DNA from: Candidatus Moraniibacteriota bacterium
GTDB taxonomy: Bacteria > Patescibacteriota > Minisyncoccia > Moranbacterales > GWC2-37-73
NCBI GenBank assembly: GCA_003507445.1
Contig: DNVR01000019.1
Span: forward strand, 76,395 to 140,394
Length of the DNA stretch: 64,000 nt
Direction: 5' to 3'
The notes beneath the pieces were generated by a model. It made no database searches. It was not told where the DNA came from and saw nothing but the letters and a program-made list of their open reading frames with translations. The position numbers and the translations under genes are program-made. Below are positions 2,972-36,000 of this stretch, piece by piece (the stretch's first letter is position 1; each line of letters starts with the position of its first letter).

Positions 2972-3529
2972 TTAGGCTCTGGAAACATAGGCTCCTTTTT
3001 CTGTATTGACGATGATTTTGTCTCCTTCGTTAACGAAAAGGGGAGTTGTAACTTTGAGTCCTGTTTCGAGGGTTACAACTTTGTCTCCGCCTGAAGATGT
3101 GTCGCCCTTGGTTCCGGGTGGAGCTTCAGTGACAACGAGAGTAACCTTAATTGGTAGTTCGATGTTCACTGGAATTTCATTGAAGTTAAGCACGCTTACC
3201 TCAGTTCCTTCAAGCAAATATAAATATGCATCGCCAATAACATCTTTGGCCAACGAAAATTGGTCATAGGTATTCATATCCATAAAAACATAGCCATCTT
3301 GCTCAGCGTAAAGATATTGAGCTTTGGATTTTGACATATCAGCTTCGTCAGCTTTGTCTGATCCATTGAAGGTTTTTTCAAGCACGCTTCCATTAAGAAG
3401 GTTTTTCAACTTTGTTCGAAGCACTGCTCCTGCGCGTCCCGTCTTGGAATGCTCGGCAGACAGTACAACATATGGAGAACCTTCCCAGAGAATATTTTTT
3501 CCTGCTTTGATATCACTTATTCCTAACAT
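2972..3529 (-). CDS. efp: Elongation factor P
   Basis: MLGISDIKAGKNILWEGSPYVVLSAEHSKTGRAGAVLRTKLKNLLNGSVLEKTF... matches the EF-P KOW/OB fold. Start moved to the ATG at 3529; the longer ORF N-terminus (MQCSFCMLHVTCYMLHES) reads through the heptamer repeat. Confidence 0.9.
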   Translation of the reverse strand: MLGISDIKAGKNILWEGSPYVVLSAEHSKTGRAGAVLRTKLKNLLNGSVLEKTFNGSDKADEADMSKSKAQYLYAEQDGYVFMDMNTYDQFSLAKDVIGDAYLYLLEGTEVSVLNFNEIPVNIELPIKVTLVVTEAPPGTKGDTSSGGDKVVTLETGLKVTTPLFVNEGDKIIVNTEKGAYVSRA

Positions 3530-3622
3530 GGATTCATGTAGCATGTAGCATGTAACATGTAGCATGCAAAAACTGCATTGCATTTTTGTTATATGTTATA
3601 TGTTTTATGTTATATGATTTGT
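3527..3622. repeat. Composite heptamer-repeat cassette E1: (CATGTAGC)n - spacer - (TATGTTA)n, abutting the efp start
   Basis: catgtagcatgtagcatgtaacatgtagcatgc ... tttgttatatgttatatgttttatgttatatga. Near-identical to 4437-4542 and related to 57332-57406, 58868-58958 and 62256-62356. Confidence 0.7.
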
Positions 3623-3829
3623 TTATTTTACTACGAAAGGTGCTAATGCCATCACGCGAGCGCGCTTAATTGCTTGAGCAAGTGTTCGCTGATGTTTTGT
3701 GCAAATCCCGTGTCTTTTTGGTGGGTAAATTTTTCCTTGTGAGTTCATAAATCTGCGAATTAGATAAGCATCTTTGTAGTCGATCTTATCCATTTTTTCA
3801 TCGCAGAAATAACATTGTTTTCTTTCCAT
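3623..3829 (-). CDS. rpsR: 30S ribosomal protein S18
   Basis: MERKQCYFCDEKMDKIDYKDAYLIRRFMNSQGKIYPPKRHGICTKHQRTLAQAIKRARVMALAPF is a typical S18. Start taken at the internal Met, since the upstream ORF extension is low-complexity. Confidence 0.85.
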   Translation of the reverse strand: MERKQCYFCDEKMDKIDYKDAYLIRRFMNSQGKIYPPKRHGICTKHQRTLAQAIKRARVMALAPFVVK

Positions 3830-3956
3830 ATTGGGAACACGAATATTCACAGATAATAAACTAATTTTCACGAATAACAAATTTTAATTTTAAAAATTCG
3901 TGTTGATTAGTGATTAGTGTGAATTCGTTTTAAATTAGTGCAAATTAGTTGATTTA

Positions 3957-4451
3957 TTAAAATGGCACGTCTTCAAGTCTTACTTCGTCCTGTTCTTCAT
4001 CAAGGTTGATGGTTGGAATTTCTTCAGCCATAGGTGTTTGTTGTTGAGCGGTTGGACGAGGTGTTGCAGCTGCTGCTCCCATTGCCATTGGCGCTGGTCT
4101 TGGTCCTGATGAACCTTGTGCGCGTTGTCCCATTTGCATATTTTCAGCCACGATGTCAGTTGTTTTTCTTTCAACTCCGTCTTTGCCAGTGTAAGAACGT
4201 GTTTCTAATCTTCCCTCAAAATATACTTCTTGCCCTTTGGTTAGATATTGTCCAGCGATTTCAGCTAGACGCCCCCAAATTACAATGTTGTGAAATTCTG
4301 ATTTCTCTTGTTTTTGTCCAGCTTTGTCATTCCAAGTTCGGTTGGTAGCGATACCAACTGTGGTCACGGTTTGACCAGAAGGAGTGGTGCGCAATTCTGG
4401 GTCTCTAGTTAAGCGTCCGATGAGTTGAACTTTGTTAAGATTCATGTTCAT
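3957..4451 (-). CDS. ssb: Single-stranded DNA-binding protein
   Basis: MNMNLNKVQLIGRLTRDPELRTTPSGQTVTTVGIATNRTW...: an OB-fold SSB with a Gly/Pro/Ala-rich linker and an acidic tail ending ...EDVPF. Confidence 0.88.
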   Translation of the reverse strand: MNMNLNKVQLIGRLTRDPELRTTPSGQTVTTVGIATNRTWNDKAGQKQEKSEFHNIVIWGRLAEIAGQYLTKGQEVYFEGRLETRSYTGKDGVERKTTDIVAENMQMGQRAQGSSGPRPAPMAMGAAAATPRPTAQQQTPMAEEIPTINLDEEQDEVRLEDVPF

Positions 4452-4542
4452 GTAGCATGTAGCATGTATCATGTAGCATCAGAAGAAAAAATCTATCTTT
4501 TGCATTTTTGTTACACGTTATATGTTTTATGTTATATGATTT
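4437..4542. repeat. Composite heptamer-repeat cassette E2 (copy of E1), between rpsF and ssb
   Basis: catgtagcatgtagcatgtatcatgtagcatc ... tttgttacacgttatatgttttatgttatatga. The ssb start codon lies inside the CATG-repeat part. Confidence 0.7.
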
Positions 4543-5103
4543 TTAAATGTTTAGCAGTTCATCAAGTTGCTTGTCGATATTTTTTGATTCTTCTTTGGCA
4601 GTTTCAACTTTTTTAACAGGAGCTGCTGGAGCTGGTGTTGTTGGTCGTTGAGTTGGTCGCTGCATTGTTGGACGTTGATTGTTGCCAGGTCTTTCAGTTC
4701 GTTGTTGTGGTCGTTGCGCAGGGCGTCCAGCATTGTTTGCAGCTTCTTTTGCTTTTCTTCGGTCTTTTGCTCCAAGTTCTGGAAGATCCTCGGTTTTTAC
4801 AATCAAGAAACGAAGAACATCATTGTTCAAATTCAATTTGTTAGTGATGGCTTGGATTCCAAATTCTTTTTCTGCGTTTGCTTCATCTGCCCAAAAATCA
4901 ATCTCGGGAAGTTCGAAGCGGCGAGTGATGTAGGTTCCTTTGTTCTGGTGTTTGATTTCATAAGCGAGTTTTCTTTTTTCGCTTAATTCTTCTCCAACCA
5001 TTGTTGCTTGCTCAAGAGCTAGAATTGCATTAACTCCTTCTTTGATCGCAGGCAGGTTTGCTTCTTGTCGTTCACCAACAAGGTAAAACAGTTCGTATTG
5101 CAT
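4543..5103 (-). CDS. rpsF: 30S ribosomal protein S6 with a basic/proline-rich C-terminal extension
   Basis: MQYELFYLVGERQEANLPAIKEGVNAILALEQ...LAYEIKHQNKGTYITRRFELP is an S6 fold. Forms the conserved rpsF-ssb-rpsR order. Confidence 0.85.
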   Translation of the reverse strand: MQYELFYLVGERQEANLPAIKEGVNAILALEQATMVGEELSEKRKLAYEIKHQNKGTYITRRFELPEIDFWADEANAEKEFGIQAITNKLNLNNDVLRFLIVKTEDLPELGAKDRRKAKEAANNAGRPAQRPQQRTERPGNNQRPTMQRPTQRPTTPAPAAPVKKVETAKEESKNIDKQLDELLNI

Positions 5104-5140
5104 ACGCGTTTTTTAAATTAGTTATTAAATGTTAATTAGC

Positions 5141-5258
5141 TTAATAATTCTAAAAGGCTAAGTATTAAAGTTTAAATCAAATCTAAATTTTAAAGTATAA
5201 ACTTTGTACTTTTTTACTTTAGAATTGTTTTAGTATTTAGACCTTAGATTTTAACCTT
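5141..5258. repeat. ~120-bp intergenic MITE-like element (copy B of the element at 186-318)
   Basis: ctaagtattaaagtttaaatcaaatctaaattttaaagtataaactttgtacttttttactttagaattgttttagtatttagaccttag. The terminal ctaaggtctaa-type inverted repeats match copy A. Confidence 0.5.
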
Positions 5259-5260
5259 AT

Positions 5261-5361
5261 AAAAAAAGCCACCAAACAAGAAAATCCTTGCTTTTAGTGG
5301 AGCATTCCAGCCTATCCACTTTTGGCTTAGTGGCGGGCTAGATTCGGACTTTCTTAGTTGT
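5261..5361 (-). ncRNA. Candidate ~100-nt small RNA (unclassified) with a consensus promoter and intrinsic terminator
   Basis: On the minus strand, TTGACC (plus 5391-5396), a 17-nt spacer, then TATAAT (plus 5368-5373). The transcript would end in a hairpin plus UUUUUUU (plus 5261-5300). No ORF is present. Confidence 0.35.
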
Positions 5362-5367
5362 AGATTG

Positions 5368-5396
5368 ATTATAGCAAGGTTTTTGGAATTGGTCAA
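5368..5396 (-). promoter_or_regulatory. Consensus sigma70-type promoter (TTGACC-N17-TATAAT) on the minus strand
   Basis: Plus-strand attata at 5368-5373 and ggtcaa at 5391-5396, with exactly 17 nt between them. Confidence 0.45.
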
Positions 5397-5480
5397 TGGC
5401 AGTGCAAGAACCTGTAGAGATGAGGCATTGCCTCGTCTCTACAAATTTAAATATATAAAAACAAAATATTATCATCCTCA

Positions 5481-5509
5481 TTGACATATGTCACCGCTTC
5501 CGCCATAAT
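5481..5509 (+). promoter_or_regulatory. Sigma70-type promoter (TTGACA-N17-CATAAT) for the M23 peptidase gene, with a 12-bp perfect palindrome TGACATATGTCA (5482-5493) over the -35 box
   Basis: TTGACA at 5481-5486 and CATAAT at 5504-5509. The palindrome tgacatatgtca overlaps the -35 box. Confidence 0.45.
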
Positions 5510-5628
5510 AAAATCCAGGTCTTTGACAAATTGAAAATGAAAGCGAGGTGAAAAAGGGAAATTGTTTTGGCAAGTGGGGAGATGTTTTCTGTTATTTTTG
5601 AAATCCAACAAGGAAAAAGGAACTAGGA

Positions 5629-6834
5629 ATGAGAAAGCTTATTCTGACAATCATGTTTTTGAATTTGTTCAGTTTTGTTTCAAATGTCTTTGCAGATGAA
5701 GATACTATTCCGCCATTTTCGGAAATTAATTGTTCAATTGGCGCATCAATGGTGCAACCGCCAGCAACACACACAGACAACGATACGCAACGGACCTTTA
5801 ATGATCTTGTTGTATGGATTAACACATACAACAATCAAAATGTTCTGAATTTTGCCTATTTCAATGATTCATATTTAACTGACTGGGTCTGTTCTGGTGA
5901 CTGCACCGGAACAGATGAGTATGCAATTATTTACACCAACTCCTGGGCTTTTGCTTATTGTGATACTGAAGGACAAAATTGTTATGGTGGGTACATGGAT
6001 CCATATATACGTGGTTTAATGGTTCGTGAAATTTTGTACTCAACTGCTCCTATACGGACTTTAAGCGGTGCAATTTATCGTCCTTCAGATTTACCTCAAC
6101 TCACTGTTGCACTAAACCCTCAAGCAGGCGGGACGGTAGCGAGTTCGCCGACATCTAACTTCTCTTGTGCAGACGGAACGTGCACGGGAAATTTCTCGGG
6201 GAATGTAACGTTGACTGCGAGTGTAAACAGTGGATATCAGCTCATTAATTGGTATGAAAATGGTACGATTATCACTAACAATTGCCCCACGACCATTTTA
6301 GACTTGACTGTGAATTGCACAAGATCAATATCGGCAGAATTCATACCAGTACTTAAATGGCCATTAACTGGAACAAAAAGTAGTAGGAGTGAGTCTTGGA
6401 ATTTTGGAAGCACATGGACTTATGGCGAATGCCCTACTGGTACATACAAAAAACATTCGGGAATCGATGTGAACGCAACCGCTGAAGAAGCTGTTTATGC
6501 AGCACATGATGGTGTGGTCAAAAAGATATTTACTGGTCAGCATTCCCAATGGGCTGACGCAATTGTTATCGAAAGCACGGATGGTCGATTTACAACAGTA
6601 TATTGGCACGTTATAAAATACGGGAGTCTATCGGAAAATGACACTGTAACAAAAGGTCAGCAGATAGCCACTATTGCAAACTTGGAAAGCAATACGCATT
6701 TTCATTTTGGTGTTCGCTTTTCATTATATAGCGATCCGGAATCATATGCTGGTGCATTGCCAGTCGCTGGTTGTGGTGGATACCTAGCGTACCCAGAAAA
6801 ATTCATTGATCCTGACGTGTTAACATACGAATAA
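5629..6834 (+). CDS. Secreted M23-family metallopeptidase with a Cys-rich N-terminal domain of unknown function
   Basis: Signal peptide MRKLILTIMFLNLFSFVSNVFA. C-terminal HSGIDVNA...AAHDGVV...HFHFGV matches the LytM/M23 motifs HxxxD and HxH. Visibly higher GC than the flanking genes, and preceded by an SD (aaggaaaaagg). Confidence 0.7.
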   Translation: MRKLILTIMFLNLFSFVSNVFADEDTIPPFSEINCSIGASMVQPPATHTDNDTQRTFNDLVVWINTYNNQNVLNFAYFNDSYLTDWVCSGDCTGTDEYAIIYTNSWAFAYCDTEGQNCYGGYMDPYIRGLMVREILYSTAPIRTLSGAIYRPSDLPQLTVALNPQAGGTVASSPTSNFSCADGTCTGNFSGNVTLTASVNSGYQLINWYENGTIITNNCPTTILDLTVNCTRSISAEFIPVLKWPLTGTKSSRSESWNFGSTWTYGECPTGTYKKHSGIDVNATAEEAVYAAHDGVVKKIFTGQHSQWADAIVIESTDGRFTTVYWHVIKYGSLSENDTVTKGQQIATIANLESNTHFHFGVRFSLYSDPESYAGALPVAGCGGYLAYPEKFIDPDVLTYE

Positions 6835-8170: not shown

Positions 8171-10129
8171 ATGAAATTTGTAATCGATAGTAAATTTAAG
8201 CCAAGTGGAGATCAACCAAGTGCAATTGAGGCTCTTATATATGGCTTGGAACATCGGGAGAAATTTCAGACGTTGTTGGGTGTGACGGGATCTGGGAAAA
8301 CATTCACGATGGCGAATGTGATTGAGCACGTGCAAAAACCGACTTTAGTGATTGCGCCGAACAAAACTTTGGCGGCACAGTTGGTGCAAGAGTTTCGAAC
8401 TTTTTTTCCAAAAAATGCAGTGGAATATTTTGTGTCGTATTATGATTATTATCAACCGGAAGCGTATATTTCTTCATCGGATACTTATATAGAAAAGGAA
8501 GTGCAGATAAACGAGGAAATTGATCGTTTGCGTCACGCTGCAACCAGTGGTCTTTTGTCGAGGAGAGATGTGATCATTGTGGCATCGGTTTCTTGTATCT
8601 ATGGTTTGGGCAGTCCGGATTATTATCGCGAAGGAACGGCTGAGGTTATTGTGGGCGAAAAGAAAAATCGTGAGGAATTGATGAAGGGAATGATCGATAT
8701 GCAATATCATCGAACGGATGTGTTGGCACGCGGAAAGTTTCGAGTAACAGGCGACACGATTGAGGTGATGACGCCGAGTCGAGAAATTGTGACTCGCATT
8801 GAATTGAAAAATGGCAAGGTTGCTCGCATTTACGAATATGATTTCTTGACCGGAGAAAAATTGGGCGAGCTTGAAAAAACTCTGATATATCCAGCCAAAC
8901 ATTTTGTGGTGCCGGAACCAGTGATGAAAGAGGCATTGGGCGAAATCGAAAAGGAAGCAAAAGAGCGCGTGAAATATTTCAGAGATAATAATAAATTATT
9001 GGAGGCTGAAAGAATTGAGAGGCGAACCAAACAGGATTTGGAAATGATGCGCGAAGTTGGATATTGTAATGGAATTGAAAATTATTCTCGCTATTTGACT
9101 GAGAGGGAAGCTGGCGAGCCGCCGTATACTTTGGTGGATTATTTCCCAAAAGATTTTTTGATGATTATTGATGAATCACACGTAACGATTCCGCAATTAA
9201 ATGCAATGTATGCTGGCGATCGTTCTCGAAAAAACGCACTTATTGAGAATGGTTTTCGTTTGCCAAGTGCATATGACAATAGACCGCTTAAGTTTGATGA
9301 ATTTGAAGAGCGCATCAATCAACTTATTTTTACCACAGCTACACCAGCTGCTTATGAAAAAGAGCATTCCAGTTCAACAGCGCAGCAGATAATCAGACCA
9401 ACTGGACTCCTTGATCCGGAAATTATTATTAAATCTGCCAAGGGACAAGTGAAAGATGTGCTGGCTGAAATTGAAAAAGTTGTTGCAAAAAAAGAAAGAG
9501 TCTTAATTACCGCACTTACAAAAAAGATGGCAGAAGATCTTTCAGAATTTTTGAAAGAAAATGGAGTGCGCTGCGAATATTTGCATTCGGATGTGGACAC
9601 GCTGGATCGCGTGCTTATTTTGCAGGGACTTCGCAAGGGAGATTTTGATGTTTTGGTTGGCGTTAATCTTTTGCGCGAAGGCTTGGATCTTCCTGAAGTT
9701 TCTTTGGTAGCAATTTTGGATGCTGACAAAGAGGGCTTTTTGCGCAGTGAAACATCGCTTATTCAAACAATCGGACGAGCTGCCAGAAATATTAATGGCC
9801 GCGTTATTTTGTATGCTGACAATATCACTGGCTCAATGAAGCGCGCTATTGATGAGACAAATCGTAGACGCACTTTGCAGACAGCATACAATAAAAAACA
9901 TCATATTACTCCAAAAACTATCGAAAAAAATATTAAATCAATTGTGGATCATGAAATTAATCCTGAAGTACCACTTGATTTTTCTAAGCTGGAATCACTC
10001 GAAGACATTGCAGGTTATATCAAGCAAAAAGAAAAAGAAATGAAAAACGCTGCTCGCTCAATGGAATTTGAAAAAGCCGCCCTTATCCGCGATGAGATTT
10101 CCACCCTGCGAAAACTGCAGTTGAAATAG
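8171..10129 (+). CDS. uvrB: Excinuclease ABC subunit B
   Basis: GVTGSGKTF Walker A, helicase motifs, and a C-terminal UVR domain (MEFEKAALIRDEISTLRKLQ). 652 aa. Confidence 0.95.
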   Translation: MKFVIDSKFKPSGDQPSAIEALIYGLEHREKFQTLLGVTGSGKTFTMANVIEHVQKPTLVIAPNKTLAAQLVQEFRTFFPKNAVEYFVSYYDYYQPEAYISSSDTYIEKEVQINEEIDRLRHAATSGLLSRRDVIIVASVSCIYGLGSPDYYREGTAEVIVGEKKNREELMKGMIDMQYHRTDVLARGKFRVTGDTIEVMTPSREIVTRIELKNGKVARIYEYDFLTGEKLGELEKTLIYPAKHFVVPEPVMKEALGEIEKEAKERVKYFRDNNKLLEAERIERRTKQDLEMMREVGYCNGIENYSRYLTEREAGEPPYTLVDYFPKDFLMIIDESHVTIPQLNAMYAGDRSRKNALIENGFRLPSAYDNRPLKFDEFEERINQLIFTTATPAAYEKEHSSSTAQQIIRPTGLLDPEIIIKSAKGQVKDVLAEIEKVVAKKERVLITALTKKMAEDLSEFLKENGVRCEYLHSDVDTLDRVLILQGLRKGDFDVLVGVNLLREGLDLPEVSLVAILDADKEGFLRSETSLIQTIGRAARNINGRVILYADNITGSMKRAIDETNRRRTLQTAYNKKHHITPKTIEKNIKSIVDHEINPEVPLDFSKLESLEDIAGYIKQKEKEMKNAARSMEFEKAALIRDEISTLRKLQLK

Positions 10130-12041: not shown

Positions 12042-14936
12042 ATGCAGGAAGACAAGATAATTATAAAGGGTGCGCGCGAGCACAATTTAAAAAATATTGA
12101 TCTGGAATTGCCTCGGAACAAGTTCATTGTTTTTACGGGTCTTTCGGGCAGTGGAAAATCAACTTTGGCATTTGATACTATTTTTGCTGAAGGGCAAAGA
12201 CGATATCTGGAAAGTTTGTCGAGTTATGCGCGTCAATTTTTGGGACAGATGGATAAGCCAGATGTTGATTATATCCAAGGTCTTTCGCCTGCAATTTCTA
12301 TTGATCAAAAATCAACCTCACACAATCCTCGTTCAACAGTGGGAACGGTAACTGAAATCAATGATTACCTGAGGCTTCTTTTTGCTAAAATTGGCGTTCC
12401 TCATTGCAGTGTTTGTGGGCGTGAAATTTCAAAACTTTCCACCGATGAAATTGTGGATAGAATTTTGGATATGGGCGGAAAAAAGAAATCACAAACAATT
12501 GAAATTTCTTCGCCAATTGTGCGCGAGCGAAAAGGCGAATATTTGGCAATGTTGGATGATATGTGGAAGCGTGGTTATTCAGAGGCGATTGTGGATGGAA
12601 AACTGGAAAGATTGGAAAATTTTAAAGATATAAAATTAGGAAGATATAACAAGCATAGTATCGATATTATTGTTGATACGGTTGTTATTAATGAAGAAAA
12701 TCTTAGTAGGATTTTTGAAGGAGTTGAAAAAGCGCTCAGGCTTTCGCACGGAATTGTAAAAGTGAAATGCGTAAAAGAGTTGAAAGTTGAAAGTAGCAAG
12801 TCGAAAGAAATTGGATGTGTTGAACAGATTTTTAATCAGAATTTGTCTTGTCCGATTCACGATATTGAATTTCCAGAAATGGAGCCGCGCCTTTTTTCTT
12901 TTAATTCTCCTTATGGTGCCTGCGAGGGTTGCGAAGGTCTGGGTATGAAAAAAGAAATTGATCCTGCGCGAGTGATGCCAGATATGAATAAAACTATTGG
13001 CGAAGGAGGGATTATGCCTTGGAGTTTTAAACCTAATAATTATCAAGGAACGGTGCTAAAAGCAGTAGCTCAATATTATAGTATTCCTGACAATAAACGC
13101 TTGCGGGATTTGCCAAAAGATAAGATTGATATTTTGATGTATGGAACTGAGGACGAAGATTTGATAAAAGTTAAATATCATTTTAAAAGTGGCAGCGGTC
13201 ATTATAATGTGCGTTGGAAAGGTGTGGTGGCGTGGCTGCAGGAAAGATATCGCACGACAACCTCAGATGCAGTGCGCACAGACATTGAAAAATATATGTC
13301 GCAAAAACCTTGTTCGACTTGCGGAGGAAGCAGATATAAAAGTGACGTGCTTCTCGTTAGTGTTGGGGGTAAAAATATTTATGAAATTTCGGCGCTTAGT
13401 ATTTGGCAGTGTATCGAATTTTTTAAAAATTTAAAATTAACTGCCCGAGAGGAATTGATTGCTGGCAGAATTTTAAAAGAAATTGTTGCGCGCTTGGTTT
13501 TTCTTAATAACGTTGGTCTGGATTATTTGACTCTTGGGCGAGCAGCGTATTCTCTTTCTGGTGGAGAATCACAGCGCATACGTTTGGCTTCTCAGATTGG
13601 TTCACAACTGGTTGGAGTTTTGTATATTTTAGATGAGCCATCTATTGGTCTTCATGCTCGCGATAATGCAAAACTCATTGAAACATTAAGGCAGTTGCAA
13701 CAAATCGGCAACACATTAATTGTGATTGAACACGATGAAGAAATGATGCGCTCTGCTGACTGGCTGGTTGATATTGGTCCGGGAGCAGGAAAGCACGGCG
13801 GCGAAATTGTGGCGCAAGGATTGCCCGAAGATGTTATTAATAATCCAAAGTCACTTACTGGAAAATACCTTCGAAATGAGCTTGAAATTGAAATTCCAAA
13901 ATTCAGAAGACAAATGAAAAGAAAGAAGAGTATCACAGTGCGAGGAGCTTCTGAGCATAATTTGAAAAATGTGACAGTGGAATTTCCACTTAAAGTTTTC
14001 ACTTGCGTGACTGGAGTTTCTGGATCTGGAAAATCAACATTGGTAGAAGAAACTTTATACAAGGCGTTGGCTAATAAATTGCATCGCGCGCTTGATGTGC
14101 CTGCAAAGCATAATGAAATTATTGGCATTGAAAATATCAACAAGGTTATTATGATTGATCAATCTCCAATTGGGAGAACGCCGCGCTCAAACCCTGCCAC
14201 TTATACTGGTCTTTTTACGCATATTCGCGAGCTGTTTGCGCAAACAAAAGACGCCAAGCTTAGGGGATATGGTCCTGGCAGATTCTCATTTAACGTGGCT
14301 GGCGGGCGCTGCGACAATTGCTCTGGCGAGGGATATCTTAAAATCGAAATGCAGTTTATGCCCGATGTGTATTTGCCGTGCGATGTTTGTAATAGTAAAA
14401 GATATAACAGTGAAACTTTGCAAGTTAAATATAAGGGTAAAAATATTTCAGAGGTGCTGGCGATGACAGTTTCTGAAGGCGTTGAATTTTTTGGCGCACT
14501 TTCAAAAATATACGAACCACTTAAAGTTTTGGAGGAAGTTGGTTTGGGGTATATTGAACTTGGTCAAAGCGCCACCACACTTTCTGGTGGAGAAGCGCAG
14601 CGTATAAAACTTGCCAGCGAACTTTCGCGTCGCGCGACTGGAAATACTTTATATATTTTGGATGAGCCAACCACAGGTCTTCATTTTGATGACATCAAAA
14701 AACTTTTAACAGTGCTCAATCGTCTTGTGGATGCGGGAAACACCGTTGTTGTTATTGAACACAATATGGACGTGATTAAAACTGCAGATTGGATCATCGA
14801 TATGGGACCGGAGGGTGGCGACGGCGGCGGAAAAGTTGTTGTCACTGGTCCACCAGAAGAAGTTATCAAATATCACAAAGAAAGTTATACCGCTAAATAT
14901 TTGCGACAAGTCCTGAAGCCGAAAAGCATACAATAA
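12042..14936 (+). CDS. uvrA: Excinuclease ABC subunit A (copy 1)
   Basis: Two ABC ATPase modules ([10 protein letters not shown] and [10 protein letters not shown]), Zn-finger Cys pairs, LSGGE signatures. 964 aa. Confidence 0.95.
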   Translation: MQEDKIIIKGAREHNLKNIDLELPRNKFIVFTGLSGSGKSTLAFDTIFAEGQRRYLESLSSYARQFLGQMDKPDVDYIQGLSPAISIDQKSTSHNPRSTVGTVTEINDYLRLLFAKIGVPHCSVCGREISKLSTDEIVDRILDMGGKKKSQTIEISSPIVRERKGEYLAMLDDMWKRGYSEAIVDGKLERLENFKDIKLGRYNKHSIDIIVDTVVINEENLSRIFEGVEKALRLSHGIVKVKCVKELKVESSKSKEIGCVEQIFNQNLSCPIHDIEFPEMEPRLFSFNSPYGACEGCEGLGMKKEIDPARVMPDMNKTIGEGGIMPWSFKPNNYQGTVLKAVAQYYSIPDNKRLRDLPKDKIDILMYGTEDEDLIKVKYHFKSGSGHYNVRWKGVVAWLQERYRTTTSDAVRTDIEKYMSQKPCSTCGGSRYKSDVLLVSVGGKNIYEISALSIWQCIEFFKNLKLTAREELIAGRILKEIVARLVFLNNVGLDYLTLGRAAYSLSGGESQRIRLASQIGSQLVGVLYILDEPSIGLHARDNAKLIETLRQLQQIGNTLIVIEHDEEMMRSADWLVDIGPGAGKHGGEIVAQGLPEDVINNPKSLTGKYLRNELEIEIPKFRRQMKRKKSITVRGASEHNLKNVTVEFPLKVFTCVTGVSGSGKSTLVEETLYKALANKLHRALDVPAKHNEIIGIENINKVIMIDQSPIGRTPRSNPATYTGLFTHIRELFAQTKDAKLRGYGPGRFSFNVAGGRCDNCSGEGYLKIEMQFMPDVYLPCDVCNSKRYNSETLQVKYKGKNISEVLAMTVSEGVEFFGALSKIYEPLKVLEEVGLGYIELGQSATTLSGGEAQRIKLASELSRRATGNTLYILDEPTTGLHFDDIKKLLTVLNRLVDAGNTVVVIEHNMDVIKTADWIIDMGPEGGDGGGKVVVTGPPEEVIKYHKESYTAKYLRQVLKPKSIQ

Positions 14937-15724: not shown

Positions 15725-17212
15725 ATGAAAAAGTCAAGATTACAGCGGAAAGTAGCTGAGCTGCCTCAAAATCCGGGGGTGTATTTTTTTCGTGATCAAG
15801 AGGGTAAGATTTTATATATTGGCAAGGCGACAAACCTTCGTTCCAGAGTTCAGTCGTATTTTCGCAATGTCATCCCGAACTCGTTTCAGGATCTAGATGA
15901 GCCTAGCGAGATGCTGAAACAAGTTCAGCATGACACAAAGGGATTCTTGAGCGTTCCTGGGCGGAGTGAATGGATTGGGTTGATGGTGGCTCAAGTTGTG
16001 GATATTGATTTTGAGCAGACGGATTCAGTTTTGGAAGCGCTGATTTTGGAAAGCAATTTAATTAAAAAATATCAGCCAAAATATAATACTCTGGAGAAAG
16101 ATGATAAATCATTTTCGTATTTTGTTGTCACTAAAGAAGAATTTCCAAAAGTTTTGATTGTGAGAAAAACAGATTTAGTTTGTCATCCCGCACTTGATGC
16201 GGGTTCCAGTCACACGCACAAATCTGGCTCAGCTCTGGATTCCCGCCTACGCGGGAATGACAAGGCCTCAAAGCCTTGTAAAAAAATACAAAATACCAAA
16301 TACCAGATACCATATACCAAGACCTTCGGTCCTTATACGAGCAAGCAACAAATGCAGACCGCGCTGAAAATTATCCGTCGCATTTTCCCGTTTCATGCTG
16401 GGAAACAAAAAACTGAAAAAGGCTGTTTGGATTTTCAAATCGGTCTTTGTCCTGGGCCGTACGCTGATGCAATTTCAAAAACTGATTATAAAAAAAATAT
16501 TCGAGGGATTGAAATGATTTTGCAGGGGAAGAAAAAAAGCTTGATTTCAAAAATGGAAAAAGAAATGCAAGTTTTTTCCAAAAAAAATGAATTTGAAAAA
16601 GCGGCAGTTCTCCGAAATAAAATTTTTGCATTGCAGCACATTCGCGATGTGGCACTGATGACAAGGGAGATGGAACATGGAGCATGGAACATGGAGCATG
16701 AAATACAAGATACAAAATACCAAATACCAAATACCAGAATCGAGGCTTATGATATCTCCAACATCTCTGGACAATATGCTGTTGGTTCAATGGTGGTTTT
16801 TGAAAATGGTATGCCGAATAAATCGCAGTATCGCAAGTTTAAAATAAAAACTGTTGATGGCAGTAATGATGTGGCGATGATGAAAGAAGTTTTGTCGCGA
16901 AGATTTAATAATGATTGGTCAATGCCAGATTTGATTTTGCTGGATGGCGGACAGGGACACGTTAATATGGCAGGGGATTTGGTGCGCGAATTAGGACTAG
17001 ATTTGTTGATTGTCGGTGTGGCTAAAGGTAAGACGCGTAAAAATCTCAATTTCCAATTTCCAATTTCCAATAAAATCCCAATGTCTCAATTTCCAAAAGA
17101 AATGCAAGAGTTTTTAAATGATAAGAATCTGGTTAAATCTATTATGGATGAGGCTCACCGCTTTGCAATTGCTTATCATCGAAAATTACGCAGTAAAAAC
17201 GCCTTAAAATAA
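15725..17212 (+). CDS. uvrC: Excinuclease ABC subunit C (GIY-YIG, UVR and RNase H-like endonuclease domains, no C-terminal HhH), carrying several in-frame repeat/MITE insertions
   Basis: GVYFFRDQEGKILYIGKATNLRSRVQSYFR (GIY-YIG), EFEKAAVLRNKIFALQ (UVR), and a DISNISGQ...LLDGGQGH endonuclease core. Inserted peptides: SFQDLDEPSEMLKQVQHD, CHPALDAGSS...DSRLRGNDK, NTKYQIPYTK, MEHGAWNMEHEIQDTKYQIPNT and NFQFPISN. Confidence 0.85.
   Translation: MKKSRLQRKVAELPQNPGVYFFRDQEGKILYIGKATNLRSRVQSYFRNVIPNSFQDLDEPSEMLKQVQHDTKGFLSVPGRSEWIGLMVAQVVDIDFEQTDSVLEALILESNLIKKYQPKYNTLEKDDKSFSYFVVTKEEFPKVLIVRKTDLVCHPALDAGSSHTHKSGSALDSRLRGNDKASKPCKKIQNTKYQIPYTKTFGPYTSKQQMQTALKIIRRIFPFHAGKQKTEKGCLDFQIGLCPGPYADAISKTDYKKNIRGIEMILQGKKKSLISKMEKEMQVFSKKNEFEKAAVLRNKIFALQHIRDVALMTREMEHGAWNMEHEIQDTKYQIPNTRIEAYDISNISGQYAVGSMVVFENGMPNKSQYRKFKIKTVDGSNDVAMMKEVLSRRFNNDWSMPDLILLDGGQGHVNMAGDLVRELGLDLLIVGVAKGKTRKNLNFQFPISNKIPMSQFPKEMQEFLNDKNLVKSIMDEAHRFAIAYHRKLRSKNALK
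15869..15934. mobile_element. P2-family palindromic MITE inserted in-frame in uvrC (66 bp)
   Basis: gtcatcccgaactcgtttcaggatctag atgagc ctagcgagatgctgaaacaagttcagcatgac. The same GCTGAAAC/GTTCAGC arms occur twice in the elp3-like gene. Confidence 0.6.
16182..16262. mobile_element. P1-family palindromic MITE inserted in-frame in uvrC (~81 bp)
   Basis: gtcatcccgcacttgatgcgggttccag ... ctggattcccgcctacgcgggaatgaca. Same termini and arms as the intergenic P1 copies. Confidence 0.6.
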
Positions 17213-19564: not shown

Positions 19565-22351
19565 ATGAAAAGAATAAACCTGTCTCTTTCTGGAATGCAC
19601 TGTGCTTCCTGTGCAATGTTGATTGAAAAAGTGCTTGCAAAAACTCCTGGTGTACAAAAAGCCAGTGTGAATTTTTCTGCAGAAAAAGTTTTGATTGATT
19701 TTGATGAAAATATAACCGATCCGCAAAAACTTATTGCTGCAATAGTTAAAGGTGGATATGGTGCTGAAGAAATTGATGCTAAAGATAGTGAATTTGAAAA
19801 GAAAAAAAGGGATCATGAGATCTCAGAATATTTTTCAAAATTTATGTTTAGCGCTTTGCTTAGTGTGCCGATGTTGTATTTTATGCTTTTGGATTTTTTT
19901 AAATGGCTTCCAGGGGAAAAAACTTTTGCGCCATACATTGGTGTGTTTTCATTGCTTTTGACAATTCCTGTGCAGTTTGTGATTGGTTCAGGCTTTTACA
20001 AGGGAATGTGGTCATCGCTAAGGATGAAGACGTTTAATATGGACAGCTTGATTGCAATTGGAACTTCGACTGCTTTTTTCTTCAGTTTGTATAACTATGT
20101 GACATATGTCATTGCTAATAATTCCTTGATCGGAGTTGGTGGTATGAAAATTCCTGATCTGTATTTTGAAACAGCAGCTTATTTGATCACATTTGTGATT
20201 CTTGGAAAATGGTTGGAAATTAGAACAAAGGGAAAGACATCTGATGCGATCAAAAAATTGATGGGGCTGCAAGCGAAAACAGCCCGCGTGATTCGTGGTG
20301 GCGAGACGCTTGATATTGCAATTGATGACGTGATTCATGGTGATATCATTATTGTTCGCCCTGGAGAAAAAGTTCCTGTTGATGGAAAAATTACCAAGGG
20401 AACATCTGCCGTGGATGAATCTATGATTACAGGAGAAAGCTTGCCAGTAGAAAAAAATATCGGAAGTATGGTTGTTGGTGGAACTATTAATAAGACAGGA
20501 AGCTTTGAGTTTGAAGCTACAAAAATTGGTTCAGAAACAACATTAGCTCAAATCATTCGCTTGATTGAAGAAGCGCAAGGATCAAAAGCACCGATTCAAA
20601 ATTTTGCCGACAGTATTTCTGCTTGGTTTGTTCCAGCTGTGATTGGAGTTGCAATTTTGACTTTCATTGTCTGGTATTTTTTCTTGGGAGCAACTTTAGC
20701 TTTTGCTTTGTTGGCATTTACTTCGGTAATTGTGATTGCATGCCCATGTGCACTTGGTTTGGCAACCCCGACATCATTAATGGTTGGAACAGGTAAGGGC
20801 GCTGAATATGGCGTGCTTGTAAAAGGTGGAGAAGCGCTTGAAGCTGCAAGCAATATTTCAGCTGTAGTCTTTGACAAGACTGGAACGCTTACCAAAGGAA
20901 AGCCTGAGGTGGTAAAAATAATTTCAAATCCTGCTTTTGATTTTGATGAGGATAAGATTTTAAAAATATCATCAAGCATTGCAAAACATTCCAATCATCC
21001 CTTGTCTCAAGCTGTTGTAAGATATGGCGAAAAACAAAATATTCAACTAGCTGATTTTGGAGATTTTCAAGAAGTCCCTGGAAAAGGAATAATTGCAAAA
21101 TGCTTAACACATAATAAGGAAATAGTTTTGGGTAATATTAGAATTCTAGAGCAAGTAGGAGTCCAAACTTCTTGGGCAAAAAATCTTCTGGAAAATGAAT
21201 CTGTAAGCGCTGGGACATTACTTTTTGTGGTGCATAATGGCGATGTTGTGGGGGCAATTTCAATTGCTGATGAAGTAAAAGAAGAATCAAAAAAAGTGGT
21301 GGCAAAACTTCAAAAAATGGGTATTGAGGTTTGGATGATTACTGGAGACAATGCGCGCACAGCAAAAGCTATTGGCTTGCAGGTTGGAATCACAAATATT
21401 TTGGCAGAAGTTTTACCAGAAGATAAAGCTAACGAAGTTAAGAAACTTCAAGCTCAAAAAATAAAAAAACATTTCCATTTGTTTGGAAATTGGAAATTAG
21501 AAATTGGAAATTCCACCCGCAGGGTGGCTATGGTTGGAGATGGAATTAATGACGCTCCTGCACTAGCTCAAGCTAATGTAGGAATCGCAATGGGATCAGG
21601 AACTGATGTGGCAATGGAGGCAGGCGACATTGTTATAATGAAAAGTGATCTGAATGATGTGGTAACTTCATTTGAACTTTCAAAAGAAACGATGGGTAAA
21701 ATAAGACAAAATATGTTTTTTGCTTTATTTTACAATGTGATTGGAATTCCAATTGCTGCTCGTGTTTTCTTTGGAATCGGCTTGGTGTTAAAACCAGAAC
21801 TAGCAGGACTTGCTATGGCGATGAGTTCTATTTCAGTAGTTGGAAATTCATTGCTTCTTAAATTATTCAAGCCTGGCAAGAGAAACTATATTTCTTTGGT
21901 TGCGCCAATTATTATGATGGTAGTTTTCACGTTCGGATTTTATGAATTTGCAAAATTCAGCAGTGGAATGGAGAATACAGTTATTAATGAGGAGCAAATA
22001 AGGGTTGAATTTAATAAATTGAATTTGAATGCCCAAATAGAAATCATAAGTGAAGAGGCTGGAGTAAAGGCATTTTATTTTACTGATGAAAATAATGTTC
22101 CAAAAGAATTGCGGGAAGAAATAAACAGCAAAAGTTTCACGCCTGAAATAATCAATGGAAAAAAATATCAGAAAGTTTATATTGGTTGGGTAGAGGCGCA
22201 GATGATGATTGAAAAAGAACTTATCCAAAAATCAGGGGACAGAGCGGATGATTTTTTTGGAAACAGTGTCATCATTGAAATCTTGCCCAAAACCAAAACC
22301 ATTCTCGACAATTTCCATTTTGTCGGAGCTGATTTTCAGATCAAGAAATAG
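19565..22351 (+). CDS. copA: Copper-translocating P-type ATPase (CopA-like) with an N-terminal HMA domain, a ~170-aa C-terminal extension, and an in-frame heptamer-repeat insertion
   Basis: [11 protein letters not shown] ([12 protein letters not shown]), DKTGTLT, and [17 protein letters not shown]. The insertion [18 protein letters not shown] (21470-21514) falls just before the GDGINDAP hinge. Confidence 0.88.
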
Positions 22352-24067: not shown

Positions 24068-26860
24068 ATGGCTTCCAAAAAAGAAACTTCGAAACAAACA
24101 AATGAGATTGTAATCAAGGGTGCGCGAGTTAATAATCTCAAAAACATCGACGTTAACATCCCGAGGGATAAGTTCGTGGTGATTACGGGACTTTCTGGCT
24201 CGGGTAAATCATCGCTGGCTTTTGACACGATTTATGCCGAAGGTAATCGTCGATATATGGAAGGCCTTTCTTCGTATGCGCGAAATTTTTTGGATCCATC
24301 AGATAAGCCTGACGTGGATAAAATTGAAAATCTTTCCCCTCCAATTTCTATTGATCAAAAAAGCATTTCTCGTTCTCCGCGATCAACTGTTGGAACACTG
24401 ACTGAGGTTTATGATTATTTGCGTATTATGTATGCAAAAATCGGAGTGCTGCATTGCCCGGAGTGTGGGACATCAATGCAAAAAAGAAGCAATCAGGAAA
24501 TTTTGGATGAAATTTTAACATTTTCTCATCACACTCAGATTGCTATTTTGGCAAAGCCGAAGGATATTGCTGTTGGAAAAGAATTATTAAAACACATTGC
24601 GCAAATGGGCTATGCTCGTGTGCGTTTTAATGGAAAAATGTTTACGGTAGCGGAAGCTATGATGCTCAGCGAAAGTGAAATTGAAACTGATATTGAAATG
24701 GTTATTGATAGAATTGTGCTCGACAAGAAAAAACCTGATGTGGAAAGAATGTTAGACTCTATTGAAACAGCGATGAAAAACGGTGGCAATTCAATGAAGA
24801 TCTTGTTTGATAATGTTGAAGAACGTAATTATAACCAAGATTTCTTTTGCAGCGAATGCGGTGTGAAAATCAAAGAAGTGACGCCGCGTCATTTTTCTTT
24901 TAATAGTCCAGAGGGTGCTTGCGACCTGTGCTCCGGTTTAGGTTACACCTTAAAAGTAAATGAAGAACTTATTATTCCCAATAAAAATCTTTCTTTAATG
25001 GAAGGTGCAATTCAGCCCTGGAGCAAATCTGGTGGAAAAATAAGTGGACAGAGTGTGCAACTTTTGACGCTTAAAGATGTTGCAAAAAAATATAAGTTTT
25101 CAATGAACGTTCCGGTTAAAAAATTAACAGCTGATCAACTCAAAATTGTTTTACATGGTAATGATGGATTTGAAGGTGTAATTCCGGCATTAGAAAAAAA
25201 ATATCAAGAAACAAAATCTGATTATGTGCGCAGTGAAATTGAAAAATATATGACCGCACACACTTGTCCATCTTGCGATGGCAAGCGTCTTAAAAAAGAA
25301 TTTTTGGCGGTGGAAGTTCAAGGAAAAACAATAGATGTGATGGTCTCAATGAGTATAACTCATCTGAGAGAATTTTTTGAGAATGTTGAAAATTGGACAC
25401 AAACAACACAAGAGAAAAGCATAGGCAAACCTATTGTGCGAGAAATTTTGCAGCGTCTTAGTGCACTTGAAAACGTGGGATTGGAATATTTAAATTTGGG
25501 ACGATCAGCTCAAACAATTTCTGGTGGGGAAGCTCAACGTATCAGACTGGCTGCGCAACTCAATTCTCAATTGATGGGAATTGTATATGTTTTGGATGAA
25601 CCTTCCATCGGACTTCATTCTCGCGACACAGAAAAACTTATTAATACTATTAAAGCCTTGCAAAACGTTGGAAATTCATTGATTGTGGTTGAACACGATG
25701 AAAGCATCATTAAAGCTGCTGACTGGATTGTTGATATGGGTCCAGGGGCAGGAGAAGAAGGCGGAATCGTCGTTTTTGAAGGTGATTATAATCAACTTAT
25801 TAAATCTAAAAATCTTACTGCACAATATATATCTAAAAAGAAAAAGGTTTCAGAAAAGAAAAAAAATAGAGCTGGAAACGGTAAATTTATTGAAATTATC
25901 GGAGCTGAAGAAAATAATTTAAAAAATGTTGATATAAAAATACCATTGGAAAAATTTGTGGTTATTTGTGGAGTTTCAGGCAGTGGAAAATCAACTTTGG
26001 TAAAAAATATTTTAGCCAAAGCATTGTCGCGACATTTTTATAACACACGAGATCTTCCTGGTAAACACAAAAAAATCAAAGGATTTGAGCATATTAAAAA
26101 GGTTATTAGTATAAATCAAAATCCAATCGGACGCACTCCACGCTCAAATGCAGCAACGTATACTGGAGTGTTCTCACACATTCGCGACCTGTTTGCTGGA
26201 GTGGAGGAAGCAAAGAACAGAAATTATACTGCTAGTCGCTTTAGTTTTAATATGAAAGGTGGGCGCTGTGAAGTGTGCCAAGGGGAAGGCTCAAAGAAAA
26301 TAGAAATGCATCTGCTTCCTGATATGTATGTGAAATGCGAAGCTTGCGGAGGAACGAGGTTTAGCAAAAAAACCTTAGAGATTGAATATAAAGGCTTTAA
26401 TGTTGCACAGATTTTGGATATGGATGTGCGCTTGGCTCTGCGTTTTTTTGCAAGGCATCCGCTTATTGCTGAAAAACTTAAAACCATGGAAGATGTTGGT
26501 CTTGGATATTTGAAGCTCGGACAAAGTGCAACAAATCTTTCTGGTGGAGAAGCTCAGCGTATTAAACTTGCCACGGAGCTTGCACGAAAATCAACAGGCA
26601 GCACTTTGTATATTTTGGATGAGCCAACTGCAGGACTTCATTTTGATGATATCAGAAAATTGTTAAGCGTTCTTAATGCCTTGGTTGATAAAGGTAATAC
26701 AGTGATTGTGGTTGAACATAATCTTGATGTTGTTCGTGATGCTGATTGGGTGATTGAACTTGGACCGGATGGTGGCGACCTTGGTGGTTATCTCACTTTT
26801 GCTGGCACACCAGATCAACTTAAAAAAGACAAGAAAAGTTGGACCGCGAAATATTTGTAG
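24068..26860 (+). CDS. uvrA: Excinuclease ABC subunit A paralog (copy 2, full length)
   Basis: [34 protein letters not shown]... Has two ABC modules and Zn-finger Cys pairs. 930 aa; the domain order matches copy 1. Confidence 0.9.
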
Positions 26861-28429: not shown

Positions 28430-30154
28430 ATGAAAAATGAAATTCAAAAATTAATAGAAAGTGCCTTAAATGAGGCAAAAAGGGCTAATGATTGGGTTGA
28501 TTTTGAGATGCCTGAAATTCTCGTTGAATATCCAAAAAGTGAACAATTTGGGGATTATACAACAAATGTTGCTATGATTTTAGCAAAAAAAGTTGGGAAA
28601 AATCCGATGGAAATAGCTGAGATTATTAACTTACAACTTACAACTTACAACTTACAACAATTTGAAAAAATAGAGGTGGCTCAGCCGGGATATATTAACT
28701 TTTATCTTTCCAAAAAGTATTTGCAAGAAATCGTTGAAAAAATAAATACTGAAAAAGAAAAATTTGGAAATTCTGATAAAAAAAATGAGAAAGTATTGGT
28801 AGAATTTTCACAACCAAATACTCATAAAGAATTTCATATCGGCCATTTAAGGAATGTGTTTATTGGAGATGCGCTTGTTAAAACGATAAAGAAATCCGGC
28901 AGCGAGGTAGTTGCTGCAAATTATATCGGGGACACCGGGACACATATTGCAAAGTGTTTATGGGGAATTGTTAAATTTCATAATGGGGAAGATTTGGATA
29001 AGATATCAAACAAGGCTGAATTTCTAGGAAAGGTTTACAGTGAAGCTGCACAGGCTATTGAGAATAATCCTGAATTCGAAGAAGAATTTAAAAATGTCCA
29101 AAAAGAATTTGAAAATGGTGATCAGGAATTGGTTCAATTGTGGAGCAAGACAAAAAAATGGTCGTTGGATGAATTTCAAAAGATTTATGAAAAACTCGGA
29201 GTATCTTTTGACGTTTACTTTTGGGAAAGCGAGGAAGAACTGAAAGGCAAGGAAATGCTAAAAGAATTGATGGGGGTATCCTGTATTAAGGAAAGTCAGG
29301 GAGCTATCGTGGCAGATCTTGAAAAATATGACTTAGGAGTTCTAGTGCTGGTCAGAAAGGACGGTAGCGCCTTGTATGGATTGAAAGATATACCTCTGGC
29401 TGTGAAAAAATTCAAAGAATTTTCCATAGATCGTAGCATAGTGGTTGTTGATTTGCGTCAGAGTCTATATTTCAAACAGATATTCAAAATTCTTGAATGC
29501 ATGGGATTTCACAAAGATATGAAACACGTGGGCTACGAGTTTGTATCCCTGAAGGGAAGTGAGACGATGTCGTCCAGGAAAGGAAACATCATACCAGCAA
29601 CATATTTGATTGATGAAACCGTAAAGCGTGTAAAGGAAAAATTTCCCAATACCGATGTTGCTGAAGAAATTGGCATAGGTGCGTTGAAATTTTATATGCT
29701 GAAATATTCCTCACAGTCAAAAATAGAATACGATATTGAAGAGTCTGTAAGATTAGATGGCGCAACCGGACCGTATGTACAATATGCGCATGCGCGTATT
29801 TGCAATATCTTGGAAAAGGCAAAGGGAATAAAAGGATTAATGGGAGAAAAGGGAAAAATGGGCAATGTGGATTTGCAATTATTAATCCATGAGAAGGAAG
29901 TAAGTTTGATAAAAGAGCTTAATAAATTTCCGGAATTGGTTGCTGTGGTTGCTGAGGATTATGAAGTTCACAAGTTTGCCCATTATGCCATCAAATTGGC
30001 TGACAAATTTCACAGTTTTTATGATGCTTGTAAGGTGATTGATGAGGGCAATGAAGAACTGACAATCGCTAGACTTTCTCTGATAAATGCTGTTAGAATA
30101 GTATTAGCAGAAACCCTGGATTTGATAGGGGTGGATGCACCTGAAAAAATGTAG
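28430..30154 (+). CDS. argS: Arginine--tRNA ligase with an in-frame (ACAACTT)n insertion
   Basis: HIGH-like region (FSQPNTHKEFHIGHLRNVFIGD), with KMSSRKG in the KMSKS position. The insertion NLQLTTYNLQQ is encoded by aacttacaacttacaacttacaacttacaa at 28626-28660. Start uncertain (28394 or 28430). Confidence 0.88.
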   Translation: MKNEIQKLIESALNEAKRANDWVDFEMPEILVEYPKSEQFGDYTTNVAMILAKKVGKNPMEIAEIINLQLTTYNLQQFEKIEVAQPGYINFYLSKKYLQEIVEKINTEKEKFGNSDKKNEKVLVEFSQPNTHKEFHIGHLRNVFIGDALVKTIKKSGSEVVAANYIGDTGTHIAKCLWGIVKFHNGEDLDKISNKAEFLGKVYSEAAQAIENNPEFEEEFKNVQKEFENGDQELVQLWSKTKKWSLDEFQKIYEKLGVSFDVYFWESEEELKGKEMLKELMGVSCIKESQGAIVADLEKYDLGVLVLVRKDGSALYGLKDIPLAVKKFKEFSIDRSIVVVDLRQSLYFKQIFKILECMGFHKDMKHVGYEFVSLKGSETMSSRKGNIIPATYLIDETVKRVKEKFPNTDVAEEIGIGALKFYMLKYSSQSKIEYDIEESVRLDGATGPYVQYAHARICNILEKAKGIKGLMGEKGKMGNVDLQLLIHEKEVSLIKELNKFPELVAVVAEDYEVHKFAHYAIKLADKFHSFYDACKVIDEGNEELTIARLSLINAVRIVLAETLDLIGVDAPEKM

Positions 30155-30156
30155 AA

Positions 30157-30245
30157 ATAACTAATAACAAACAACTAACTACTAACAACAAGGGCTTAAC
30201 AAAGCATTTCTGTTATAAGTTGTAAGTAGTAAGTTGTCAGTTAAT
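30157..30245. repeat. Long imperfect hairpin built from ACAACTA / TAGTTGT repeat units (argS-glycosyltransferase spacer)
   Basis: caactaactactaacaac at 30167-30184 is inverted as gttgtaagtagtaagttg at 30225-30242. Confidence 0.55.
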
Positions 30246-35874: not shown

Positions 35875-36000
35875 TCAAATTTCCAATTTCAAATTTCCAA
35901 TTTCCAATAAAATCATAATGACTAAATTTTAAATGACCAAACTTGAGTTCATAATTGAAAATTTAATGAGAATTGAGAACTGAAAATTGAAAATTATGGA
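35875..36000. repeat. Hairpin-forming (AATTTCC)n / (GAAAATT)n repeat module
   Basis: aaatttccaatttcaaatttccaatttccaat ... ttgaaaatttaatgagaattgagaactgaaaattgaaaatt. Confidence 0.55.

Follow-up and report, generated by a model that had tools for sequence, protein, structure and literature searches.

A conserved RNA upstream of rpsF in Moranbacteria: a probable transcription-attenuating leader with S6:S18 as candidate effector

The window, i.e. the whole 64-kb stretch of Moranbacterial DNA analysed here, carries on its minus strand the operon rpsF-ssb-rpsR-efp, whose gene order S6-SSB-S18-EFP is kept in 60 of the 61 loci with enough DNA. The S6 protein is 186 aa long; past the Pfam S6 domain (residues 2-103) it continues for about 80 residues rich in proline and glutamine, and this C-terminal extension differs in length from relative to relative, with 150 to 225 aa for the whole protein. 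Upstream, an M23 peptidase gene is read in the opposite direction. The RNA under study lies between the rpsF start and this gene, where a sequence-only reading of the same DNA had located it and where the gene coordinates place it as well. Its features are collected in Table 1.

Table 1. Features of the rpsF leader and its surroundings (window positions).
Feature	Position	Strand	Remarks
M23 peptidase gene	5629-6834	+
-35 hexamer TTGACC	5391-5396	-	11/12 promoter match, both hexamers
Extended -10 TGCTATAAT (TG + TATAAT at 5373-5368)	5368-5376	-
Strand A, CAACUAAGAAAGUCC, 5' strand of antiterminator helix P1	5346-5360	-	contains GAAAGUCC; MFE fold
Hairpin P2	5307-5341	-	candidate protein-binding site
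P2 outer helix CUAGCC/GGCUGG	5341-5336 / 5312-5307	-
P2 internal loop, CG opposite AUA	5335-5334 / 5315-5313	-
P2 inner helix CCAC/GUGG	5333-5330 / 5319-5316	-
P3 mini-hairpin (UGCU...AGCA), linker + terminator 5' strand	5289-5304	-	forms only with P1; MFE fold
Intrinsic terminator, loop GAUUUU	5261-5300	-	stem 5300-5287 / 5280-5269, then C + U7 at 5268-5261
Strand A', GGAUUUUCUUGUUUG, 3' strand of P1	5273-5287	-	overlaps terminator loop + 3' half
AT-rich spacer, terminator to rpsF ATG, 157 nt	5104-5260	-	lineage-specific insertion in the 5' UTR, outside the conserved element
Operon rpsF-ssb-rpsR-efp	2972-5103	-	Pfam
rpsF	4543-5103	-	Pfam S6
ssb	3957-4472	-
rpsR	3623-3880	-
efp	2972-3583	-
Heptamer arrays	1343-1409, 3535-3616, 4449-4551, 16284-16736, 21483-21512, 28628-28658, 30159-30242, 35878-35908, 38994-39024, 54478-54508, 61268-61360, 62257-62349, others

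The RNA is preceded by a promoter whose -35 and -10 hexamers are separated by 17 nt (TTGACC-17-TGnTATAAT, minus strand, 5396-5368). It stands exactly where the sequence-only reading had put it, and the -10 element is additionally TG-extended. In relatives, the -35 hexamer reads TTGACN or TTGCCA at an unchanged distance from the RNA, and a TATAAT, TATACT or TAAACT hexamer is kept 6-8 nt 5' of ACAAC. Judging from these motifs, transcription would start near A5361 (ACAAC...), about 7 nt past TATAAT. Taken together, promoter-like sites show no enrichment in the AT-rich DNA of the window (37 vs 32.1 ± 5.9 in shuffles); the leader promoter is convincing only because relatives keep both hexamers at a fixed distance from the RNA.

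At the other end, the transcript closes with an intrinsic terminator. Its stem (CCACUAAAAGCAAG/CUUGUUUGGUGG, 5300-5269) comprises 13 bp with a 2-nt bulge and has a ΔG of about -12 kcal/mol; a simple terminator scan missed it because the scan permits no bulge. In the lower stem, each of the eight modelled pairs has undergone compensatory change and pairing extends to 95% of cells, with a U-run behind the stem, which appears as CCAC/GUGG, CCGC/GCGG, CUACA/UGUAG or CCGUC/GACGG. Covariation confirms the stem of the hairpin that, together with U7, had been predicted earlier to end a ~100-nt transcript. The only ORF overlapping the leader is a 50-codon TTG frame that starts within the -35 hexamer, and the transcript itself holds just AUG-CUC-CAC-UAA, whose AUG is not conserved in homologs. 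The earlier description of the transcript as free of ORFs is therefore correct, with no conserved AUG or reading frame, and leader-peptide attenuation was rejected on the same grounds.

The spacers between terminator and rpsF are unrelated in sequence among relatives, the long ones consisting of lineage-specific AT-rich repeats. In the window, the spacer stretch 5210-5258 is 82% complementary over 49 nt to positions 194-242, upstream of a RodZ-like gene (325-1329). The spacer is absent or replaced in relatives, and the fold of its entire 157 nt is not significant compared with shuffles (z = -1.3). The "MITE copy B" reported next to the RNA corresponds to this repeat-like, AT-rich spacer downstream of the terminator (5104-5260). 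The RNA itself is not a repeat, and a repeat or MITE origin was rejected for it, as it occurs as a single copy per 64 kb and nowhere else in the 542 kb searched.

Several other observations concern the surrounding DNA. The DNA between the divergent promoters of the M23 peptidase gene and rpsF holds a near-perfect 31-nt palindrome (TGTAGAGATGAGGCA-T-TGCCTCGTCTCTACA, 5413-5443), immediately upstream of the -35 hexamer. The palindrome occurs once in the window, has no conserved counterpart in relatives and is followed by no U-tract on either strand. Dozens of intergenic tandem arrays have a period of 7 and about 4.4 copies (~31 nt each), for example (CATGTAG)n, (TGTTATA)n, (AATTTCC)n, (TTGGAAA)n and (AACTTAC)n. 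Two arrays close to each other are often reverse complementary, counting G:T as a pair; a hairpin between them would be possible only in plus-strand RNA or single-stranded DNA. Related genomes have other heptamer families at the same intergenic positions. The window also encodes two full-length UvrA paralogs 9 kb apart (12042-14936 and 24068-26860; 964 and 930 aa), both with UvrA DNA-binding and interaction domains, together with uvrB at 8171-10129.

The relationship between the RNA and rpsF was examined from both sides. An S6 protein profile gave 37 species-representative genome loci, all from Moranbacteria or Parcubacteria, with S6 identities from 91% to 35%; homologous elements were found by BLASTN and then with a covariance model (R1), which has a single match in the 64-kb window, at 124 bits. 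In 37/37 of these loci, the element occurs once, upstream of rpsF and in the same orientation. A second S6 subclade (MEYELxFF...), reached via the most divergent S6, has it directly before rpsF in 8/8 loci. In the converse test, metagenomes were scanned with a pattern derived from the RNA alone, and 65 loci were returned. Five were set aside owing to contig ends or too little downstream DNA, and eight without S6 proved to be chance matches in GC-rich coding DNA, rejected by the covariance model; all 52 genuine loci have an S6 gene 113-344 nt downstream on the same strand. Altogether, the element is found directly upstream of rpsF, on the same strand, in 97/97 informative loci.

The distance from element to ATG ranges from 24 nt to about 230 nt across relatives. 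In six genomes (L007, L032, L036, L038, L042 and L043), only 24-42 nt separate the U-tract from the rpsF ATG. There is consequently no room for a separate rpsF promoter, which makes the conserved promoter most likely that of the operon and the RNA its leader. Where the spacer is long, its AT-rich sequence may hide a further promoter. Two annotation issues were encountered among the relatives. In GCA_000995965.1 (L110), the S6 gene called at 1501-2076 (191 aa) begins inside the leader RNA (1464-1555); its start codon is probably mis-called, and the leader corrects the annotation. One contig carrying an S6 of the same CPR family (P0210) bears the NCBI label "Candidatus Bathyarchaeia archaeon" and is probably mis-binned.

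These data bear directly on what kind of RNA this is. The sequence-only reading had proposed a small RNA of unknown identity. As a conserved, structured, non-coding unit of ~100 nt with promoter and terminator, matching no Rfam family, the proposal stands; as an independent gene it does not, being fixed before rpsF in all relatives examined, with spacers down to 24-42 nt and a 5' end that can pair with the 3' half of its own terminator. The same features weigh against a stand-alone RNA acting in trans, with rpsF served by its own promoter and the linkage mere synteny. The strong promoter, the good terminator with U7 and the missing ORF would suit such an RNA, and the 157 nt of AT-rich DNA before rpsF in the window do contain a weak promoter-like site (5176-5147). 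The position of a free-standing sRNA would, however, be untied to one gene, and the element always stands before rpsF (97/97), leaves no space for another promoter in six genomes, and has no second copy in 542 kb; furthermore, its 5' end and its terminator are complementary and coevolve, which a trans-acting RNA would not need. A trans-acting sRNA is thus very unlikely, although the ~100-nt product of termination may serve a second function, and the element is in all likelihood a cis-acting terminator/antiterminator leader.

No known RNA family accounts for the element. Rfam 15 at gathering thresholds finds two tRNAs only in the whole 64-kb window (60468-60540 and 60623-60696), and at E≤10 the region 5050-5700 gives no RNase P, SRP, 6S or ribosomal leader. 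Homologs (20 loci at gathering thresholds; L042 at E≤10) likewise gave nothing relevant, and all these searches together returned only tRNAs, tmRNA and chance microRNA/snoRNA matches; riboswitch families match neither in the window nor in the homologs searched. A match to SRP RNA, 6S or another Rfam family, which the sequence-only reading had named as grounds for abandoning its proposal, was accordingly obtained neither at the gathering threshold nor at E≤10. As positive control, the rpsF leader of E. coli matches RF02893 at 110.1 bits (gathering threshold 37 bits), and it is this score that makes the missing RF02893 match meaningful. As a separate observation, two distantly related Moranbacteria carry a tmRNA gene (148-153 bits) some 2 kb beyond the downstream end of the rpsF operon (L032 5370-5764, L038 5430-5823), and Rfam finds no tmRNA in the window.

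RNase P, SRP and 6S RNA were rejected, having no model match and the wrong size. The transcript had been judged far too short for RNase P RNA, rightly so at ~100 nt and with no RNase P model match at E≤10. What the leader has in common with bacterial RNase P RNA is the octamer GAAAGUCC, which forms a P4 strand in RNase P; in the leader, it pairs with GGAYUUUC 60-70 nt downstream, and the likeness is coincidental. The stretch GAAAGUCCGAAUC is indeed present in the sequence, and the "RNase-P-like" GAAAGUCC belongs to the 5' strand of the predicted antiterminator helix.

The first structural unit of the RNA is hairpin P2. In alignments fitted to the structures under test, its helices are paired in 97-98% of cells, with compensatory changes in 9 of 10 pairs; P2 and the lower terminator stem taken together are 96.4% paired across 72 distinct sequences and show double-sided changes in 17/18 pairs, compared with 73% pairing in shuffles and 40-50% with slid partners. 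The 37 S6-ascertained sequences give the same picture. The comparative analysis of covariation, suggested as a check in the sequence-only reading, hence supports both P2 and the terminator stem. Alternative pairings between P2 and terminator strands (CCAC/GUGG vs GGUGG), assessed by eye, were rejected: they show no covariation, since the terminator keeps its sequence where the P2 inner helix turns into CCGU/ACGG.

Within P2, the apical part is variable, ranging from a tetraloop (4 nt) to about 90 nt of added hairpins. The internal loop is strongly conserved, with CG in 71-72 and AUA in 67-72 of the 72 sequences, a conservation that rests on the S6-ascertained loci, as CGC and GAYARG were imposed by the search pattern in the metagenome set. 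The S6-ascertained sets show the same loop, with four exceptions (L024, L029, L031 and L043). The pairs flanking the loop covary, the outer one being C-G or U-A and the inner C-G becoming U-A in L112 and L117; the base before the CG is C in 43 sequences and U in 29 (~40% U) and is paired with G or A.

The calculated minimum free energy fold of the window RNA is not the one with the terminator. At -34.3 kcal/mol (z = -3.0), it contains the helix P1 instead, formed by strand A at the 5' end of the transcript and strand A'. P1 shares the nucleotides of the terminator loop and most of the 3' strand, so that the two structures are mutually exclusive. Of the 37 sequences that were folded, most have P1 in their MFE structure, which lies 0-6 kcal/mol below the fold obtained when strand A is blocked, which is always P2 plus terminator. 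According to a second model (R2), whose alignments were likewise fitted to the structure under test, the 14 pairs of P1 are 90-92% paired in 34-67 distinct homologs. Covariation is modest, with double-sided changes at 5-6/14 pairs, and the covarying cells are few because the P1 sequence is highly conserved. Clear compensations are GUCC/GGAC to GCCC/GGC (U-A to C-G) in L036, L042 and L113-115, GAAAG/CUUUC to GAAAAG/CUUUUC in L020, L111 and L116, A-U to G-C in L074, and CAACUAAG/CUUGUUUG to AUCAAG/CUUGAU in another clade. Furthermore, cognate A:A' duplexes have a mean energy of -13.07 kcal/mol, against -12.14 ± 0.18 kcal/mol for re-paired partners, and 0/2000 permutations reach a value as low.

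In the P1 fold, the linker and the terminator 5' strand may form a third small hairpin, P3. A P3-like hairpin is seen in 55/67 distinct homologs, with pair sequences that differ by clade (UGCU/AGCA, CUUC/GAAG, UUCC/GGAA, UCC-GCAA-GGA and others), and confidence that it is real in the ON fold is weak to moderate. An H-type pseudoknot, in which strand A would pair with the loop of a retained lower terminator stem, was rejected as sterically unlikely, with only 3 nt to cross a 9-bp helix. Taken together, folding and covariation describe the leader as a predicted two-state element, which adopts either a P1/P2/P3 three-way junction or a free 5' tail followed by P2 and the terminator.

Such an architecture may be read in more than one way. 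An ON riboswitch-like element is conceivable, where P1/P2/P3 would be stabilised by an ion, a small molecule or some other factor of the cell, and the synthesis of ribosomal proteins, SSB and EF-P would follow a growth signal instead of free S6:S18. The arrangement resembles an aptamer plus expression platform, with P1 as closing helix and its 3' strand overlapping the terminator; the two folds are near in energy in most homologs, P3 is present in 55/67 sequences, and a junction-stabilising ligand would account for switching ON with no added assumption. The strands of the junction (J1/2, J2/3 and J3/1) are, however, variable in sequence and length, and the sole invariant unpaired bases sit in the P2 internal loop, a placement more usual for protein sites. 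The conserved junction bases and one-pathway genes of metabolite riboswitches are absent from the leader, which occurs only before rpsF-ssb-rpsR-efp, never before metabolic or transport genes, and matches no Rfam riboswitch. An ON riboswitch is distinctly unlikely on these grounds. It is quite improbable that the element represents a new class of ON switch with no ribosomal-protein mimic, its junction sensing a small molecule or other non-protein signal and thereby setting the output of ribosomal proteins, SSB and EF-P in ultra-small bacteria that depend on a host, or that the terminated 100-nt RNA also acts in trans.

The leader might also work with no ligand at all. Read-through would then be set by RNA polymerase speed, NTP/ppGpp or NusA/NusG, with P1 and the terminator as a kinetic valve and the P2 loop serving RNA stability or processing. 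The terminator and its competitor are both conserved, the U-rich sequence formed by A' and the terminator 3' strand (GGAUUUUCUUGUUUGG) is a plausible pause or UTP-sensitive site, and the reduced genomes of CPR bacteria contain few regulators. The ligand-free leader is nevertheless considered unlikely: the CG/AUA loop is invariant down to ~30% S6 identity while the P2 apex varies freely, which implies specific recognition, and the operon encodes a dimer known to bind leaders (PMC3854524).

That dimer, S6:S18, is the established ligand of rpsF leaders, where it reads a bulged CCG mimicking 16S C719-C720-G721 at the h22/h23a/h23b junction (PMC3854524, PMC3895269); in E. coli, it represses translation (PMC4647458). 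In the Moranbacterial RNA, (C/U)CG lies directly 5' of the P2 hairpin, which is followed by the return strand of the helix. From our own reading of the E. coli sequence, we take the 16S order to be CCG, h23a and then the h22 3' strand, i.e. the order seen in P2. K60 and R63 of S18 (IKRAR; E. coli numbering), which make the contacts to CCG, are conserved. The mimicry of CCG by the P2 loop is imperfect, because the base before CG is U in ~40% of sequences and is paired. Taking both sides into account, the chances that S6:S18 is the effector of the leader appear to be about even.

As for the level at which control would be exerted, no SD-like motif occurs within 20 nt of the rpsF ATG in any of 38 loci (0/38). 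With rpsF lacking an SD, occlusion of that site is unavailable, and control at the level of transcription makes sense. The interpretation favoured here, and regarded as probable, is that the RNA is a transcription-attenuating leader of rpsF-ssb-rpsR-efp in Moranbacteria (Patescibacteria/CPR), with S6:S18 as the most likely effector. In the putative OFF state, P2, the terminator hairpin and the U-tract would form while the first ~16 nt stay single-stranded, and RNA polymerase would release the ~100-nt RNA. In the ON state, strand A (~15 nt) would pair with the terminator loop and 3' half to give P1, the terminator 5' strand would pass into P3, and the resulting P1/P2/P3 three-way junction, devoid of a terminator, would allow read-through into rpsF. 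S6:S18 present beyond free 16S rRNA would bind the CG/AUA loop once P2 has been transcribed. P2 is located 3-6 nt from strand A, and a bound dimer would block P1, letting the terminator win. This last step is conjecture, as P2 is part of both folds; ligand binding at the three-way junction would instead turn expression ON.

Among the characterised systems that come closest is the RpsF leader (RF02893, S6S18CBM; PMC3895269, PMC3854524, PMC4647458). Both occupy the 5' UTR in operons that open with rpsF and include rpsR, often together with ssb; both have a hairpin interrupted by a loop, with a conserved C-G-containing trinucleotide between stem and hairpin that the Moranbacterial RNA would match imperfectly; and for both, S6:S18 feedback by mimicry of 16S C719-C720-G721 is presumed. 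In contrast to RF02893, the Moranbacterial leader carries its CG 5' of the inner hairpin, not 3', with a preceding base that is C or U and paired; it has no SD to sequester, lies 24-230 nt from the ATG, and its output is a predicted intrinsic terminator/antiterminator rather than translational repression. It also lacks similarity to the RF02893 model even at E≤10. Assignment to this family was therefore rejected after the E. coli positive control, given the missing model match, the absence of SD sequestration and the CG on the opposite side of the hairpin.

A lineage-restricted S6:S18 leader candidate has been reported in Chlorobi, upstream of rpsF-ssb-rpsR, where the widespread motif is absent and rpsF has no SD (Eckert & Weinberg 2020, PMC7247131); the motif was described as having no resemblance to rRNA (PMC7247131). 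Like the present element, it is a lineage-restricted alternative RNA before rpsF whose ligand is inferred from gene context only. The two differ in lineage, which is CPR here, and neither the leader in the window nor the homologs searched gave an Rfam family match.

With regard to mechanism, the relevant comparison is with attenuators such as the E. coli S10 leader, on which L4 acts by transcription attenuation. In B. subtilis, the rplJL leader is bound by L10(L12)4 and attenuation proceeds by termination (PMC4538822). These systems and the rpsF leader have in common a promoter-proximal intrinsic terminator opposed by an antiterminator, with the operon's own ribosomal protein thought to favour termination; as in other attenuation leaders, a conserved intrinsic terminator is found here between the promoter and the first ribosomal-protein gene. 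The protein and the RNA are different, and, unlike in rplJL/S10-type leaders, the antiterminator consists of the transcript 5' end paired with the loop and 3' half of the terminator, so that a three-way junction results; the leader showed no anti-antiterminator.

In the literature searched, no description of such an element in Patescibacteria was found, and neither that literature nor Rfam 15 yielded a ribosomal-protein feedback leader for the Candidate Phyla Radiation. If the interpretation is correct, the radiation would here gain its first described leader of this type. It would also be the third, structurally unrelated RNA before rpsF, after the widespread and the Chlorobi motifs (the latter judged by its description), and would add to the case for repeated leader evolution. 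Furthermore, it would be the first S6/S18 leader to use a terminator/antiterminator and not SD hiding, which fits an rpsF without SD. As a two-state RNA of compact size (~90-105 nt), represented in nature by 80 sequence variants, the element is convenient for studies of protein-controlled attenuation, and it may provide a native regulatory part for Patescibacteria, in which inducible expression tools are lacking (PMC11665869).
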